64,000 nt of DNA from Nitrosopumilus sp. (GTDB lineage: Archaea > Thermoproteota > Nitrososphaeria > Nitrososphaerales > Nitrosopumilaceae), in the NCBI GenBank assembly GCA_965223425.1, contig CBDCWS010000001.1, positions 40,572 to 104,571 on the forward strand, given 5' to 3'. Shown here piece after piece: positions 38,539-63,505 of this stretch (position 1 is the first letter of the stretch; each line of letters starts with the position of its first letter). The notes below the pieces were generated by a model. The model was not told where the DNA came from and did no database searches. It saw only the letters and a list, made by a program, of their open reading frames with translations. A program made the translations under genes and the position numbers.

Positions 38539-39971
38539 ATGAATTTGGTTTTGCAGTTTTCGGAAGCGGATATTGGTTACTGGGCAAGTGTGTATAGCGG
38601 TGTTTGGACGCGTCGGCAGCGTGAAAGAGAAGATCATCTTATGGGGCTTGTCGATGAGATTCAAAAGTGTGGCGAGATGACGAGTAAAGAATTGGGTGAT
38701 GTGCAGAGGTGGAAGTCTCCGCGTGGGATTAAGCTTTTAGATGATAACACGGATTCGGAGATTCGTGCAATTACCAGAGATGCGTTTGATGCTACGGACG
38801 ACTGGAAGAAATTATCGCTCCTAACGGCTCTTAGCGGGATGCGTGTGCCTCGTGCGTCTGTCGTATTGCATTTATATGATAAAAAGCCGTTTCCGATGGC
38901 AGATCGGTACGCCAAGAAATCTATCGGTTTTTCCGGTAGTTATACACAACGCTTTTGGCGGTCGTATTGCGAATTTACGCGTGATATTGCTAATAGGAAC
39001 GGTATTATAGTGAAGCCCAGAAATAAGTTAGCATATTCTAAGATTTATGCTATCCTCTAAGTCTTATGAGCTATTCAACAGATTTACGCAAACGCGTCCT
39101 CGACTTCGTTAGCAGTGAGGGCAGCATCGCAGAAGCCTCACGAAGATTCGGTATCTCTCGAACCTGCATCTATAAGTGGTTGAATGCTGAAGACCCCTTC
39201 AGCTGTAAAAAGCCGGGACCCCGAGGCCCCCGATCCATTGATTATGATGCGCTCAAAGCACATGTCGCTGATTTTCCAGATGCCACACAAATTGAGCGTG
39301 CGACTCACTTTGGCGTCTCGAAGCATTGTATCTGGTACGCACTGAAAAAACTCAATATCACTCGAAAAAAAAACGGCGGACGTACAAAGAACAATGCCCG
39401 CTGAAACGAGAAGCCTATCTCTCCTGGCTTCAGTTAGAAACCGATGTGCGCGGCAAAACACCCGTTTATATTGATGAGACGGGTTTCGCCACATCAGGTT
39501 TCCGTGAGTACACCTATGCGCTGAAAGGGGTTGCTGTCGCAGATCAGGTGTCAGGGAATCGGTATAGGCGGACCTCCTTGATTGCAGCTCGGATTGCCGA
39601 GTGTTTTACAGCACCCGTGCTTTTTGAGGGTGCCTGTGAGAGTCTTGCCTTTAACGCATGGATTGATCAGATGCTATGTCCGTTGCTTGATGACAGGCAC
39701 GTTGTGATTATGGATAATGCCTCCTTCCACAAGGGTTCACAGACAGCAGCGTTGATCAGGGGTTGCGGTGCGAGTTTGCTATTTTTACCCCCCTACTCGC
39801 CGGAGTTGAACCCGATTGAGAAGGATTTCGCCAACCTGAAGCGGATGCGTCAATACAACGCAGAAGCAACGCTTGATGAAATCATAAAAGTGTATCAGTA
39901 ATTATGGGCTTTACTATAATATGCGTACGTTGGATAGGGCATTGTGGGCTTGGGGCTGGTATCACAGTTAA
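38539..39971 (+). pseudogene. HhH-glycosylase-like protein split by IS630
   Basis: Excising the IS and one TA restores NRNGI-NMRTLDRALWAWG; motif LSGMRVPRASVVLH. Confidence 0.65.
39006..39918 (+). mobile_element. IS630-family element (TA target), orfs 39066-39404 and 39326-39901 joined at an A-run
   Basis: TA-TAGTGAAGCCCA...TGGGCTTTACTA-TA; YIDETGF, DNASFHK, YSPELNPIE. Confidence 0.9.
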
Positions 39972-40074: not shown

Positions 40075-41181
40075 TCAAGCACTATTTGTGAGGGCACTCA
40101 ACACAGATCCGAGTTGCTTCGTAAGGTATGGAGATTCCTGTCCCACTTTACTTAGCGACTCCATCAATGGAAAAGCAGACCCGTGCCAGTCTCCGTTCCT
40201 GTCGTTCACCTGTCTCCCTATCACGATCCCCGGACCTCGGGTGAAGCTCTTAAGTCGGTCAATACCTTCCTCAATGATGTCCTTGGGAAGGGGTTTTCCT
40301 CTTCGCCGGGACCACTCCACGAGGTAATGGAGGCCTCGCAGGATGTCATATTCGAAAAAGCGGGGAAAAAACGGCTTCAGCCATTCTGGATTTATAACAC
40401 TCCCACCTTCCTTTGAACAAACCAACCGATGCTCAATCAGGTATCGCGCTCCATTATCGAGGAATCTCTTCTCCGCAGCCGTGTAGTCTCGATCTGTGAA
40501 AAACAACACGGCCTCCAGGGGTGGCAGACTTGATACGATCGAACTCTTACCCGACTTCAGATAAGCGTCCGGCTCACAGTTTAGCCCTCCATCTGAAAGT
40601 TGGTGCTTTAGGAACCACCTTCTGATCCATGGCAGGTCTGCCTCTGTATCGCATCCACAGGTAGAAAGGATCATATAGAACACGCCCAGTTCACAGTGAC
40701 AGCAGTCCATTTTTTTCTTATCTGCTTCAGTCTGTGGAGCATCATGTTCGGTAATAACGAACTCCTGCCAGGCTCCATGCTTGAGCTGCTCCAACGCGCT
40801 GTCGACAGCTGACCGGGGAATCCGCGCGACCTCCCCCATTTCGTAAAGAATAGCCAGCTGCCACCACGGTCCGTCCCATTTCCTTCTGCTCCCGCGGTCC
40901 GGGACTGAGAATGCGCCTTCGGACGATATCACCTCAACTGCTGACTCGATTGCGTTGTCCATGTTGACCCCTTTGTCTGCGAATACTTGGGCATATTCCT
41001 GTTGTGCCTTTATCAAGAATGTCAGCGGCACAAGCAAGAGACTTAATGGTTTCATAACCTCTTTATCAAAATACTCGTTCTGACGCATAATTCCTGCTTG
41101 CATCTGAAACAATGTGCTGTGTGGGTTGTGGATAACAATGCTTTCCAAGTTCTCTACACGCTCAAGATCGGATTCGCACAT
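40075..41181 (-). CDS. Prenyltransferase/terpene-cyclase-like alpha-alpha toroid protein
   Basis: KWDGPWWQL, Q..DGGLNCE, FFEYDILRGL motifs. Confidence 0.6.
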   Translation of the reverse strand: MCESDLERVENLESIVIHNPHSTLFQMQAGIMRQNEYFDKEVMKPLSLLLVPLTFLIKAQQEYAQVFADKGVNMDNAIESAVEVISSEGAFSVPDRGSRRKWDGPWWQLAILYEMGEVARIPRSAVDSALEQLKHGAWQEFVITEHDAPQTEADKKKMDCCHCELGVFYMILSTCGCDTEADLPWIRRWFLKHQLSDGGLNCEPDAYLKSGKSSIVSSLPPLEAVLFFTDRDYTAAEKRFLDNGARYLIEHRLVCSKEGGSVINPEWLKPFFPRFFEYDILRGLHYLVEWSRRRGKPLPKDIIEEGIDRLKSFTRGPGIVIGRQVNDRNGDWHGSAFPLMESLSKVGQESPYLTKQLGSVLSALTNSA

Positions 41182-52219: not shown

Positions 52220-52909
52220 TCATACCTCTTTTTTAACCGTGTAGCCGAGTGCGATGACCTTCGCGACAAGTGCTTCGGCTTGAAATTGGTCAAGCGGGTC
52301 GCGTGGGTTATCTTCGGCATCAAGCGACATCGCTTCCACCGCGGCTTGTGCCGAGACATAGTTGACACCGATATAGGCTTGTGTCGTCGAGACGTTCTTG
52401 TGTCCGAGCAGCTCCTTGACCATATAGATGTCGTTACACTTGTCATAAAGCCGTTGTGCGAAGGTTTTCCGCATCGTGTGTGTCGCGAGTTTACCCGTGA
52501 GACCTGCGGCGCGAAACGCTGCGTCGAGTATTTTATGGATGGCGTGGCGTTTCACCGCTTTATCTGTGCCTTTGCGAGACGGAAATAACGGCATATCGGG
52601 ATGCAGGCTGCCAAAGTATGTGCATTGCCAAGCAATAATCTCCGCAATCGCCTTGCGGCCATCAGTGTTGACAGGGATCGTCCGACTGGTTTCACCGCCT
52701 TTGACGATCGACTTATCAAACTGAAAATCGCTCACGGGTTGACCGTTCTGGTAAACATCACTGACTTTGAGGGCAAGCAGTTCTGAAACCCGCCCGCCAA
52801 TCGACACACCGAGCATAAACAGACCACGATTCCGCTTCGCGTATGTACCCTGAAACGCATCACGGACTTTGCGGATCTCATCATTTGTTAGGGGTCTTGT
52901 TCCCTTCAT
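52220..52909 (-). CDS. Short tyrosine recombinase/resolvase (catalytic domain only), intact
   Basis: GGRVSE, IVKGG, THTMRK, LLGH, TQAYIG. Confidence 0.9.
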   Translation of the reverse strand: MKGTRPLTNDEIRKVRDAFQGTYAKRNRGLFMLGVSIGGRVSELLALKVSDVYQNGQPVSDFQFDKSIVKGGETSRTIPVNTDGRKAIAEIIAWQCTYFGSLHPDMPLFPSRKGTDKAVKRHAIHKILDAAFRAAGLTGKLATHTMRKTFAQRLYDKCNDIYMVKELLGHKNVSTTQAYIGVNYVSAQAAVEAMSLDAEDNPRDPLDQFQAEALVAKVIALGYTVKKEV

Positions 52910-56933: not shown

Positions 56934-57306
56934 GATACACCTCTTTGAGTTCTTTGAGTTGCCTGTCTATCGTGGATATATCCGCACGAATACTGCGCAT
57001 CAGACTCGGAAAGGCTTGCGCTTGTGCCTTACGGAGCGACATCAGTAAATACAACCGATCTCTTTGGAGTCGGCTTTTCTTTTCTTTGGCTGTGCCGACA
57101 AACATAAAATCCTCGTTGCCTTTGAAAATCTTGGACTTTTGGATCAGCACGCCTCCAATCCCGCTTGGAAACCCGAATAAAAGATCGCGCAAATCCGACT
57201 GTGAAATGTTACGCAACTGTTTTGCCGCGGTACGCATACTCCACCATGTCCCGATCCCTAAAATCCGCTCCAAACGTTGCTGTGTATACCTTGCCATAAT
57301 ACTCAA
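56926..57306 (-). CDS. Hypothetical basic protein
   Basis: Overlap-coupled ORF. Confidence 0.55.
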   Translation of the reverse strand: MSIMARYTQQRLERILGIGTWWSMRTAAKQLRNISQSDLRDLLFGFPSGIGGVLIQKSKIFKGNEDFMFVGTAKEKKSRLQRDRLYLLMSLRKAQAQAFPSLMRSIRADISTIDRQLKELKEVYHV

Positions 57307-57608
57307 TTAACCTCCATGCCTCTTGACTTCATGCTGTAGGTAGTTGATAGCGTGCTTGAGGCGTTCTGTATAGACAAATCGCTCTCTGGATCCTTGCTAT
57401 CCATCGGCACGCTCACAGCCTCGTGAAGACAGCCTAACGCCTTTTGAATGTTCGTTGCCGTGATCTTCTTATGACGCATTAGAATGCTCCTGTAGTGGAA
57501 GGCATCGGTGGCGTAAGGTAAACAACCTTTAGGTGGTTTTCTACCTTTTCGCCCCGATTCAGGTTTAAAAACCTCGCCCTGTCCTGTCTCGGTTATTGGC
57601 GTTGCCAA
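57303..57608 (-). CDS. Hypothetical protein
   Basis: Overlap-coupled ORF. Confidence 0.5.
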   Translation of the reverse strand: MATPITETGQGEVFKPESGRKGRKPPKGCLPYATDAFHYRSILMRHKKITATNIQKALGCLHEAVSVPMDSKDPESDLSIQNASSTLSTTYSMKSRGMEVN

Positions 57609-58360
57609 ACCACCGTGTCCTCGTGTGTGATCTTCACTGTCTTCTTGCCTGCATAAAACTGTAGGTAGAAATCCAATTCCTCTTTATCACCTTCAAGGAT
57701 ACGCTTCGCAGTCCTGCCGTTCACACTGCTCACATGCACCTCACCGGTCGCGGTGTGCAGACTAAAAGGCACGCGCTCATAGACTTTGTAAGGCTCTAAC
57801 ACAAACGTTGCTGGCTCTACGGCTTCACCCGCATCAAAACGTTTCATAAACGCTTGTGCTGCATCACAGAGTTTTGCTAACTGGTAGCCCCCCGGCTTTG
57901 GACACAAATGATAGTAGCAGATCATCTCGCGTGTCTCACGTGTTTGGCGTTTGTAGGCTTCGACAATTGCCCCGCCGTAGTGTCCGCTGTCGCTACTATA
58001 CTGTTTTCTTGGCGACTGTAGACGTTTAAACCAGTTTTCGCCATACAGGGTTTTACGCGTCTCACGTCCCTTGTCAATATCCGCCTGTGTGATGTGCAGT
58101 TCGAGAGGTTCAGGAATCAGGGAAAGTAGCCCCAAGTATTGAAGCACCAACGCCCCGTCTTCGTCTTCCTCGTTCCAGCGCGGTGTCCCTGTGCAAGATT
58201 CGTAGTCGTCTGGCAGTTCTTTGATGCGTTCATCGGATAACCAGATACCGCCATGACCTGCTGTCGAGACGCTGATAACGCCGTCGGCGATACGGTGGTA
58301 GTGTTGAATAGCACCCCACGGGGTTGCTATACGAGGGTAAAAACGATTTTGCGTATTCAT
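57593..58360 (-). CDS. DUF7007-like protein (mobile-element type)
   Basis: TPWG..QH...IADG...VSTAGHGGIWLS..R...W.EED motif; start moved to the ATG with AAGGAG RBS. Confidence 0.7.
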   Translation of the reverse strand: MNTQNRFYPRIATPWGAIQHYHRIADGVISVSTAGHGGIWLSDERIKELPDDYESCTGTPRWNEEDEDGALVLQYLGLLSLIPEPLELHITQADIDKGRETRKTLYGENWFKRLQSPRKQYSSDSGHYGGAIVEAYKRQTRETREMICYYHLCPKPGGYQLAKLCDAAQAFMKRFDAGEAVEPATFVLEPYKVYERVPFSLHTATGEVHVSSVNGRTAKRILEGDKEELDFYLQFYAGKKTVKITHEDTVVWQRQ

Positions 58361-58548
58361 GATACTCCTTGACGGATATATCCGCCCTGTTGTACAATGA
58401 TAGCGAAGGGATAACGCCCCTTCACTGTGATATAGCAATATTTTAGGGTAGGTCTTTGCCTGCCCTAATTTGTATCCGCCCATTACGGATACAATACGCA
58501 AGCGCGGAGTTGAACCGCGCCAAGCGCACCGTCTGCGTTGCGTTGTAT
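58361..58548 (-). promoter_or_regulatory. Multi-hairpin intergenic leader containing a tRNA-like T-arm
   Basis: CGCGG-TTCAACT-CCGCG inside an ACGCAA/TTGCGT stem, followed by four further hairpins. Confidence 0.6.
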
Positions 58549-58549
58549 A

Positions 58550-59059
58550 CTAATACATGTCAATCCCGCGTAGGTATTCCCTGACAATTTCTCGCACAAC
58601 GAGAGAAAACAGGTTATACAGACTGAACCTGTTGCCAAATACAAACTCCAGCCCATCATCGTTGATCAGTTCCTCAACGGCTTCCTCAAATCCCATTGTG
58701 TAGTTGCTGATAGCGTCCATTATCTTGTAAGCAGGATCGTTGCCGTCGGCTATATCAAAGAGGGTTTTGATCCCCTGTGTATTCATGTAGTCAATGACGT
58801 AGCCGTGAAAACTGTTCGGTGGATCGCCGTCAACCCATTTCGCAGACGTTACACGCACATAATCGCCATGCACGCTGTAGTCTTCCAAGTTTTCATCTTC
58901 TGCCACGCCGAATAGCATATTATGAACGTTTGGATCGCCGTTGTTGCGATCTACACATGCCGTGCCAGAAAACACGCTATCAAGTTCCTCGTTTGTCGTG
59001 ATCCCGTTGTCCCATTCAACCGTCACAATCTCGCCAGTGGTAAGTGTCAATCTAATCAT
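58550..59059 (-). CDS. Hypothetical acidic protein
   Basis: AGGAG RBS after a GGCGCG hairpin. Confidence 0.65.
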   Translation of the reverse strand: MIRLTLTTGEIVTVEWDNGITTNEELDSVFSGTACVDRNNGDPNVHNMLFGVAEDENLEDYSVHGDYVRVTSAKWVDGDPPNSFHGYVIDYMNTQGIKTLFDIADGNDPAYKIMDAISNYTMGFEEAVEELINDDGLEFVFGNRFSLYNLFSLVVREIVREYLRGIDMY

Positions 59060-59118
59060 TGATGTATCTCCTGTAAGAAGGACGCGCCCCGAAAGACGCG
59101 CCTCGCTGTTGGTTCGTG

Positions 59119-59351
59119 TTAACTCCTTACCATCCTTACATTGACCTTGAAACCGATTTCCCCAAGCAAAAAATACCGGTGGTGGTTGACGTTATCGTGG
59201 CTGATCCATTCCTTGCCGTTGGGTTTCATGTGTAGTTTCGTAAGGCGTGCCGTGATGCGATACGCTTTGCGATGGATAAATTCATCGTCTTGACGAAAAC
59301 AGGCGCAAAACTGTTCCCGTGTCTGCTACACTTAAAAATCGCTTCATACAT
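59119..59351 (-). pseudogene. Small gene with a probable 1-bp deletion
   Basis: TAATG-coupled start; MYEAIFKCSRHG continues in a shifted frame QFCACFRQDDEF...RMVRS*; span is 233 nt. Confidence 0.45.
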
Positions 59352-59539
59352 TATTTATACCTCTTTGCATACTCTTTGGCGTAGATATTGCGTTCCTCTA
59401 ATACCTTTTGCCGTTCCCGCCAGTTCTCTGTTAGCATTGTCATTGTTGCCCGATGATTGTAGGATTCGATCTTCTCTACCAATTCCCGTTTAACATCTGC
59501 CATGCCCGTTCTTGATGTTGGTATACCTTCATTCGCCAC
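59351..59539 (-). CDS. Hypothetical protein
   Basis: Coupled ORF. Confidence 0.55.
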   Translation of the reverse strand: MANEGIPTSRTGMADVKRELVEKIESYNHRATMTMLTENWRERQKVLEERNIYAKEYAKRYK

Positions 59540-59867
59540 GTTCCAATGCCTGCTTGACTTGTGCGACTTTTAGTAACTTGACGGATTTGCGCACCGCGAC
59601 GATGTTCGCCTCTTTGGCTTTCAGCGTCACAGATAACCCGTTGAATTTCGGAAAATGATCGCTCGTTGTCGTGAAAAAGACGCGCACCTGACCGTCTACG
59701 AGTCTAACCGTCTGCGCCGTGACTCGATAGCCGATCCGATAGAATTTCCGATTGTGCGTTTTCCCGATGTAGTGTGGATTATTCGATTGGATAAATCCAA
59801 GCACGTCATCAGGATTGTCTTTTGTATACTGCTTGCCGTAGGCTGCTAAACCTGTGATTTGTGTCAT
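59529..59867 (-). CDS. Hypothetical basic protein
   Basis: GGAG RBS before MTQITGL. Confidence 0.6.
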   Translation of the reverse strand: MTQITGLAAYGKQYTKDNPDDVLGFIQSNNPHYIGKTHNRKFYRIGYRVTAQTVRLVDGQVRVFFTTTSDHFPKFNGLSVTLKAKEANIVAVRKSVKLLKVAQVKQALERGE

Positions 59868-60058
59868 GATAATCTCCGTTGTGAGTAGGGACACCGTGTT
59901 ATCACCTTGCCCCATGTTCTGAAAACATAAACACGCCTGTTACGGATATTGCGAAACCTGCGCCCCCACCCTTGATAGCGTGTATTGATCCAAAACTCCA
60001 GTCGCCGTTGGCGTTGCGCGTTCAATGCGAGATGCATATAAAAGAATTGCTGATCCAT
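59864..60058 (-). CDS. Hypothetical Arg-rich protein
   Basis: ATGA overlap with the next gene; follows a GGCGCG hairpin. Confidence 0.4.
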   Translation of the reverse strand: MDQQFFYMHLALNAQRQRRLEFWINTRYQGWGRRFRNIRNRRVYVFRTWGKVITRCPYSQRRLS

Positions 60059-63466: not shown

Positions 63467-63505
63467 GCTATACCACATTATACCACATTTTTCAAGTTAT
63501 TTCAA
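63467..63505 (-). promoter_or_regulatory. Tandem overlapping sigma70 promoters at the head of the array
   Basis: TTGAAA-17-TATAAT (63505 to 63477, with a TG extension) and TTGAAA-17-TATAGC offset by 10 bp, produced by two 10-bp tandem duplications. Confidence 0.75.

Follow-up and report, generated by a model that had tools for sequence, protein, structure and literature searches.

The window, that is the whole 64,000-nucleotide stretch analysed here, corresponds to positions 40572–104571 of a 123,097-bp contig (C2), the second in its assembly. The locus of interest lies within a long co-oriented run of mostly small genes that includes RadC, a LexA-like gene and a tyrosine recombinase gene (52220–52909), and many of the junctions in this array carry GC-rich hairpins. 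A near-consensus promoter (TTGAAA-17-TATAAT with a TG, 11/12, 63477–63505, minus strand) heads this array, some 5 kb upstream of the tRNA-like module described below. On the minus strand an upstream gene of 169 aa (58550..59059), whose stop codon is a TAG at 58550–58552, is separated by a spacer of 189 nt from the ATG, at 58360, of a DUF7007 gene (57593..58360, 255 aa; PF22653, E 7.6e-18). The DUF7007 gene is the first in a tight group of four overlapping genes, so that the spacer forms the leader of the whole group.

The first-pass annotation had described this spacer as containing an acceptor-like stem, a small hairpin and a perfect T loop followed by four more hairpins, and all of these pieces are present on the minus strand where it had placed them. 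The tRNA-like module (58495..58543, minus strand), as delimited by the sequence, by covariation and by the covariance model R1 introduced below, starts with the 5′ half of a 6-bp acceptor stem (ACGCAA, 58538–58543, pairing with TTGCGT, 58496–58501), which leads into an analogue of the D arm (CGCA-GACGG-TGCG, 58525..58537) with a stem of 3–4 bp, CGC(A)/(T)GCG, and a loop that ends in an invariant GG. That the ‘small hairpin’ can be matched to a D arm through this GG had been overlooked. The place of the anticodon arm is taken by a linker of just 4 nt, and this is followed by the T arm (GCGCGG-TTCAACT-CCGCGC, 58502..58520), with a 6-bp stem, a 7-nt loop (TTCAACT) and a closing G…C, by the 3′ half of the acceptor stem and by a discriminator-like A (58495) with an invariant T behind it. 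As had been noted from the first, there is neither an anticodon arm nor a CCA. The T arm fits the tRNA motif GGTTCRANYCC, reading GGTTCAACTCC at 58506–58516 on the sense strand between two co-oriented genes, and the same motif occurs in real Poribacteria tRNAs (56 compared). In the alignment described below, the 6 bp of the acceptor stem and the 6 bp of the T stem add up to 12 stacked pairs, a total equal to the 7 + 5 of tRNA.

Programs that recognize known RNAs do not report this module. ARAGORN returned no tRNA and no tmRNA gene in the window, the negative result that the first-pass annotation had expected, and a search against Rfam 15 gave no RF00005 match to the module either at the gathering score or at E values up to 10; at that relaxed cut-off the single Rfam match was a chance fstAT hit on the other strand, and mascRNA-menRNA, TLS and YrlA were not among the matches. 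The region is nonetheless highly structured: a 206-nt stretch folds as RNA with −79.8 kcal/mol, against −53.8 ± 4.2 for shuffled sequences (z = −6.2; none of 200 shuffles as good), and folding of the leader stretch as DNA gives a similarly low value relative to shuffles (z = −6.3). The minimum-energy fold of the single RNA sequence contains a T hairpin extended by GTGCGC/GCGTAT. This alternative was rejected as the acceptor variants found in other copies (ACGGAA/TTCCGT, GCGTAA/TTACGC and ACGGTA/TACCGT) covary solely in the three-helix model.

The T-loop motif by itself carries little weight, since GGTTCRANYCC occurs twice on the 123-kb contig against 0.8 expected. The second occurrence (around 39812) was considered as a further module and discarded because it falls in a gene for a transposase of the IS630/Tc1 type (39326–39901, plus strand), where the codons of the SPELNPIE motif give GGTTCAACTCC by chance on the opposite strand. 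The significance of the module comes from comparison across copies, for which we assembled a close alignment of 15 copies, consisting of the one in the window and 14 homologous copies from eight Poribacteria genomes. All 16 pairs of the acceptor, D-like and T helices are kept in 15/15 copies, without a single unpaired cell, and 8 of the 16 pairs show changes on both sides, although the copies are related by descent and such cell counts exceed the number of independent events. The acceptor variants among these copies are ACGGAA/TTCCGT and GCGTAA/TTACGC, with a third pair that is G-C in every copy; in the D-like stem the compensatory variants CGTA/TACG, CAC/GTG and AACG/CGTT are seen. In the T stem 4/6 pairs have changed on both sides while the loop stays constant except at R57 and Y59, most homologs having GCGGGG, GCGGAG, GGACGG, GCAGGG, GCACGG or GTGGGG where the window copy has GCGCGG. 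A wider set of 37 distinct sequences has 98.4% of its cells paired and compensatory changes at 13/16 pairs, figures to be read with the fact that this alignment (40 sequences) was fitted to the covariance model; RNAalifold independently yields the same three-helix junction.

The invariant positions of the module are those that are important in tRNA. They comprise the GG that ends the D-like loop (GG-T in 15/15), the T-loop sequence G-TTCRAYT-C and the A-T that follows the acceptor stem. The T loop, whose conservation in homologs the first-pass annotation had made a test of its proposal, is invariant in 15/15 close copies and is kept in about 40 wider matches, and the tRNA-like interpretation of the structure is upheld. 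The GG of the D hairpin could dock onto the T loop to form an equivalent of the tRNA elbow. Over the tRNA-like part and the hairpin that follows it (hairpin 2), G-U pairs outnumber A-C mismatches by 13 to 2, which indicates that the fold is selected on the mRNA-sense strand. Taken together these data make it very probable that 58495–58543 is a conserved mimic of the ‘top half’ of tRNA on the mRNA-sense strand, in which a 6 + 6-bp stack is combined with a D hairpin in miniature and a T loop of canonical type.

The same comparison bears on the simplest alternative, namely that these are generic intercistronic hairpins and that the T loop arose by coincidence in a hairpin of the GGCGCG family. 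The near-expected frequency of the T-loop motif on the contig and the GC-rich hairpins at many other junctions of the array are what such a reading would lead one to expect, but the entire three-helix fold is conserved and covaries across genomes, the T stem is not of GGCGCG type in most homologs, and the 2.6-Mb assembly contains a single match to R1. The comparative data across copies refute this reading, and we regard its probability as negligible. Membership of the GGCGCG family, which the first-pass annotation had also proposed, does not hold for the module as such: a GCGCGG T stem is present in only 3/15 homologs and the resemblance is particular to the window copy. GGCGCG-type hairpins do occur at gene junctions in related Poribacteria arrays (L007:3870–3900, L096, where they lie upstream of DUF7007 homologs, L119, L121 and L127), and this family of junction hairpins is thus common to those arrays and the array in the window.

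The distribution of the family was assessed with R1, a covariance model of the 54-nt module, which scores 80.6 bits at 58493–58546 of the window. R1 matches 35/151 Poribacteria genomes, with up to seven copies per genome and many of them on megabase contigs, whereas 150 genomes of the host genome's own phylum, used as a control, gave just two weak matches of 25–26 bits. The wider matches include a second subfamily (ACGGTA … TACCGT), built on the same plan. Where this second subfamily is chromosomal, the module constitutes the 5′ domain of a conserved non-coding unit of about 470 nt (L136:1441–1975, L138–L157; alignment A6), which spans AAGGAGTAGTTCCT to TTTTTTACTAACAG, ends 5–25 nt ahead of the start codons of diverse genes and is present in up to seven copies per genome; numerous columns of its alignment are invariant, compensatory changes can be seen, and it gave no match in Rfam. 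Searches outside these genomes were negative, with no match in a pattern scan of IMG/VR for the module and no DNA match to 57000–60000 of the window in a plasmid database.

Used as a DNA query, the 189-nt spacer matched four Poribacteria genomes at 70–74% identity over about 180 nt and gave partial, multicopy matches to its first 50–90 nt in four more. It was from this intergenic query that the link to the module emerged, as the sequences upstream of DUF7007 homologs are not alike. The DUF7007 gene itself has many protein homologs in ENA/Logan, but a profile scan of genome and metagenome contigs gave two close Poribacteria loci, the others being distant and matching the N-terminal domain alone. 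Homologs were found in Candidatus Poribacteria contigs and in 5/176 genomes of that phylum and were absent from sets of 60 and 400 genomes drawn from the host genome's own genus, order and phylum. For the gene, the leader and the module alike, relatives are found solely in Poribacteria and none in 150–400 genomes of the host's phylum. The contig has a GC content of 46.9%, the 2.5-Mb chromosome one of 41.2%. These observations make the 123-kb contig look foreign to its genome and point either to horizontal transfer or to an artefact of binning or co-assembly; the covariance model ties the contig to Poribacteria rather than to the genome under which it has been filed.

The orientation of the module is always that of the surrounding genes, and related arrays contain two to four modules spaced 1.5–4 kb apart. 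Across the 15 copies the upstream genes are mutually unrelated, and the downstream genes belong to at least six families, of which DUF7007 alone is known to Pfam; nine downstream genes and the gene upstream of the module in the window gave no Pfam match. In four copies the gene right behind the leader encodes a peptide of 45–48 aa that combines a single hydrophobic helix with a strongly basic tail (L123:7743–7880, L122:5402–5539, L125:4820–4954 and L119:3837–3980, all on the minus strand), which belongs to no Pfam family and, as far as can be judged from its sequence, resembles a type I toxin. In two genomes (G627 and G454) the element lies about 500–600 nt downstream of the DUF7007 gene, and it must accordingly be an independent module that is not tied to DUF7007. 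These two genomes have the leader and the downstream gene in common while their sequences diverge immediately upstream of TAACG, and the leader travels with the downstream gene. An upstream open reading frame could be scored for 10 of the 15 copies, and in 8 of these the upstream gene ends in a TAA whose final A is the nucleotide that begins the acceptor stem. The overlap with the stop codon is not universal, and the window copy deviates from it in having its TAG 6 nt before the module.

A sharp 5′ edge of this kind, at which G627 and G454 part company, might also be expected of a site that acts at the level of DNA, either as a recombination or attachment site for a tyrosine recombinase or as a single-strand initiation or promoter structure of a transferred strand. 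tRNA genes are classical targets of integrases and the array does contain a tyrosine recombinase gene. The invariant GG and T loop are features of RNA tertiary contacts, however, which a DNA site would not need, and the compensatory changes speak against recognition of a duplex sequence. In addition, no partial or duplicated copies of the module were found elsewhere on the contig. The ‘ssDNA promoter structure’ that the first-pass annotation had offered as one of its options fares no better: the excess of G-U (13 against 2) places the G-T pairs on the coding strand and not on the template strand that an ssDNA promoter requires, and the coupling protein family PF02534 and the relaxase family PF03432, the two families searched, were not found on the contig. 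We therefore consider a DNA-level function highly unlikely.

The module is the first domain of a portable leader of about 190 nt, placed between unrelated cistrons, in which it is followed by hairpins 2–5 and then by a Shine–Dalgarno site. Covariation is seen in hairpins 2, 3 and 5 as well. The earlier suggestion of a regulatory leader is borne out insofar as the whole of these 190 nt behaves as a conserved, portable unit. Hairpin 2 (TTGTATCCG/CGGATACAA, 58470..58494, minus strand) has a conserved loop, ..TGGG.., and is 92.9% paired with compensatory changes at 8/9 pairs; the 13 to 2 ratio given above places its folding, too, on the sense strand. Hairpin 3 (TTAGGGCAGG/CCTACCCTAA, 58443..58468, minus strand) has one C-A mismatch on the sense strand that becomes G-U on the opposite strand. 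It is kept in the close copies, and in these A-C combinations outnumber G-U by 21 to 5 on the sense strand, because of which it may fold better in an antisense RNA; in the window it scans as a terminator-like site on the plus strand. Hairpin 4 (AGTGAAGGGG/TCCCTTCGCT, 58402..58426, minus strand) was identified by folding, its sequence differs between copies and its region is weakly conserved in alignment A2. Hairpin 5 (GGCGGA-TATA-TCCGTC, 58371..58386, minus strand) lies directly 5′ of the Shine–Dalgarno sequence AAGGAG of the DUF7007 gene (58365..58370, minus strand); its core, GACGG/CCGTC, is kept in eight full-length copies, with GACAG/CTGTC as a compensatory variant, and CGTCAAGGAG at the Shine–Dalgarno site is conserved among the full-length copies.

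The leader also contains, on its opposite strand, a sigma-70-like motif (TTGACG-18-TACAAT, 58369..58398, plus strand; 10/12 in a promoter scan) that faces back across hairpins 4, 3 and 2 as well as the tRNA-like module, and that the first-pass annotation had overlooked. At least 9 of the 15 copies (including L119–L127) have an equivalent motif (TTGACR/TTGAAA-17/18-TAnnnT) at the equivalent place. The first two positions of its −10 element, T1 and A2, are invariant in 15/15 copies and are the sole invariant columns in that part of the alignment, T6 is present in 12/15, and the −35 element abuts the complement of the Shine–Dalgarno site. We had considered a promoter on the sense strand at the TAnAAC box found here and rejected it, as what is conserved there matches TAnnnT read from the opposite strand. 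From its conservation the motif is probably an antisense promoter, which would add control by an antisense RNA to whatever else the leader does.

This raises the question of whether the leader as a whole is best seen as a sense/antisense control module, in which it would be the target of a small antisense RNA and its hairpins would act as kissing or stability elements, an arrangement that is compatible with processing. Such control is well known from hok/sok, FinP/traJ and the type I toxin–antitoxin loci. The recurrence of the motif at the equivalent place with its −35 against the Shine–Dalgarno complement, the constancy of T1, A2 and, to a lesser extent, T6, the bias of hairpin 3 towards pairing on the antisense strand, where a run of U follows it in about six copies, and the toxin-like hydrophobic peptide gene behind 4/15 leaders all argue for it. 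On the other hand, it leaves the long-range acceptor pairing, the GG of the D loop and the T loop unexplained and does not account for the presence of the same module at the head of a different, chromosomal unit of about 470 nt. Neither the Shine–Dalgarno site nor the start codon would be covered by the antisense transcript, for which no conserved terminator was found, and the downstream genes are mostly not toxin-like (in the window it is DUF7007). As an explanation of the leader as a whole, antisense control thus seems unlikely.

For the module itself we favour, tentatively and at a little short of an even chance, the interpretation that it is a processing signal of the ‘t-element’ type, which would be recognized by RNase P (perhaps with a second activity at its 3′ side) and would punctuate the polycistronic RNA. 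An RNase P/Z-type processing signal had been among the options of the first-pass annotation, and of the mechanisms considered it fits best. Bacterial RNase P reads, on tRNA precursors, the 12-bp acceptor/T stack together with the elbow formed by the T and D loops, and these features are all present and conserved in the module. A type A RNase P RNA was found in 4/4 Poribacteria genomes tested. The lack of a CCA would be normal for tRNA-type substrates in these organisms, since few of their tRNA genes encode one: the 3′ CCA is encoded in 17 of 56 distinct tRNA genes (loci L158–L187 of the two genomes G454 and G627), and of the 39 genes lacking it 24 have, like the module, a T after the discriminator. 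According to this scheme RNase P would recognize the acceptor/T stack and the elbow and would cut at the 5′ edge of the acceptor stem (58543/58544), which in most copies lies inside or adjoining the upstream stop codon, and a 3′ activity might cleave past the discriminator. Cleavage would split DUF7007 and the three genes overlapping behind it from the upstream message and would give this downstream sub-operon a defined 5′ end protected by hairpins, with the antisense promoter in the leader probably contributing antisense-RNA control. The 3′ cut is unsupported, since searches for the RNase Z equivalog in four Poribacteria genomes gave sub-threshold matches only (best 76–84 bits, compared with a cut-off of 293).

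Two features of the locus sit uneasily with processing as the whole story. A cut at the predicted site would, in most copies, take the last base of the upstream TAA and create a non-stop message, which would be costly in bacteria unless intended, and a pure processing model does not account for the conserved antisense promoter. Moreover, folds that resemble tRNA can have other uses, among them stabilization and the binding of proteins. The module could accordingly be a tRNA mimic that is not cleaved. It might offer a platform, or act as a decoy, for a protein that binds tRNA, such as a modification enzyme, EF-Tu, the CCA-adding enzyme, or a defence protein or toxin directed against tRNA, or it might be a 5′ or 3′ structural cap that stabilizes or insulates cistrons. 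The structural and covariation evidence applies here too, the surrounding array includes RadC, DUF7007 and a LexA-like gene, and on chromosomes the module is still attached to a long stretch of conserved non-coding sequence, which suggests that it can act as one domain within a larger RNA. Lacking an anticodon arm, it could not be a decoy for anticodon nucleases, though, and without a CCA it could not be charged unless first processed; no candidate for the binding protein is consistently linked to it, the flanking genes being unrelated and without Pfam family. On this evidence an uncleaved mimic does not appear likely, and the processing signal remains the reading that we prefer.

Among known systems the t-elements, which have been described in Haloferax volcanii as well as in plant mitochondria, share with the module a tRNA-like fold around a GGTTCRANYCC T arm and an acceptor stem, located in mRNA adjoining coding regions. 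They differ from it in that the module comes from a bacterial lineage and a plasmid-like element, forms a tight sequence family of fixed architecture with a D-like hairpin carrying GG and no anticodon arm, and is fused to a conserved multi-hairpin leader with an antisense promoter motif; in t-elements cleavage has been proposed and partly shown, whereas here it is predicted from the sequence. The t-elements of plant mitochondria, non-canonical tRNA-like structures with GGTTCRANYCC that direct cleavage of mRNA by RNase P and RNase Z, some of the resulting ends lying inside the reading frame and some at or within the stop region (PMC1920247), are the closest documented parallel; mRNA ends there map to the borders of the element. 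The mascRNA of MALAT1 (RF01684), to which the first-pass annotation had likened the module, is tRNA-like and non-decoding too and is a signal for RNase P and RNase Z, but it comes from eukaryotes and its cloverleaf includes an anticodon arm, if a small one; the module has no match in Rfam, even at E values up to 10. The tRNA-like domain of tmRNA, whose 5′ end is made by RNase P according to PMC3985003, also consists of the upper half of tRNA (acceptor stem, T arm and a reduced D region, with no anticodon arm). In tmRNA, however, the two halves are at both ends of an RNA of about 360 nt, with a CCA and the G3-U70 identity pair for alanine, while the module is contiguous, has G-C as its third pair, lacks CCA and is not reported as tmRNA by ARAGORN. 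Of the features of canonical tRNA, the module has G53-T54-T55-C56-R57-A58…C61 and the GG of the D loop (15/15) but not the cloverleaf with its anticodon arm. The junction units elsewhere in the array that combine a GGCGCG hairpin with a ribosome-binding site have stop codon, structure, Shine–Dalgarno site and start codon in the same order, but they are single hairpins and the module is a three-helix junction. Defining features of tRNA, of the tmRNA domain, of mascRNA and of the GGCGCG hairpin family were looked for and not found, and the module belongs to none of these groups.

With respect to its arrangement the module may also be compared with animal mitochondria, in which tRNAs lie between cistrons and incomplete stop codons (T or TA) abut them and are completed by polyadenylation. 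Both systems have tRNA-shaped units between co-oriented cistrons, and the module often starts on the last base of a TAA, but the mitochondrial units are real decoding tRNAs, and restoration of stop codons by polyadenylation is not, to our knowledge, known for the Poribacteria lineage. It is possible, although we would hesitate to expect it, that Poribacteria and their plasmid-like elements have a bacterial counterpart of ‘tRNA punctuation’ based on a dedicated tRNA mimic without anticodon arm, in which RNase P cuts, often within the upstream TAA, to give separately regulated sub-operon mRNAs and possibly non-stop messages, and in which the same mimic serves as the 5′ domain of the multicopy chromosomal leader RNA of about 470 nt. 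If this were true it would add to the cis-acting RNAs of bacteria a class that is new and that Rfam lacks.

Signals for mRNA processing that have the shape of tRNA are established in organelles, in one archaeon and in mammalian long non-coding RNAs, but Rfam 15 and the literature searched yielded no account of a conserved tRNA mimic without anticodon arm at the cistron junctions of bacteria, and none of the papers searched paired Poribacteria with ‘tRNA-like’. The R1 covariance model already provides an annotation tool for dozens of loci. If cleavage is confirmed, the module, at about 50 nt, would in addition give the design of synthetic operons an RNase P signal that is compact and portable; it would extend punctuation in the style of the mitochondrion to a free bacterial lineage, and it would offer a handle on how the mobile elements of sponge symbionts express long arrays of small genes, possibly with anti-defence functions.
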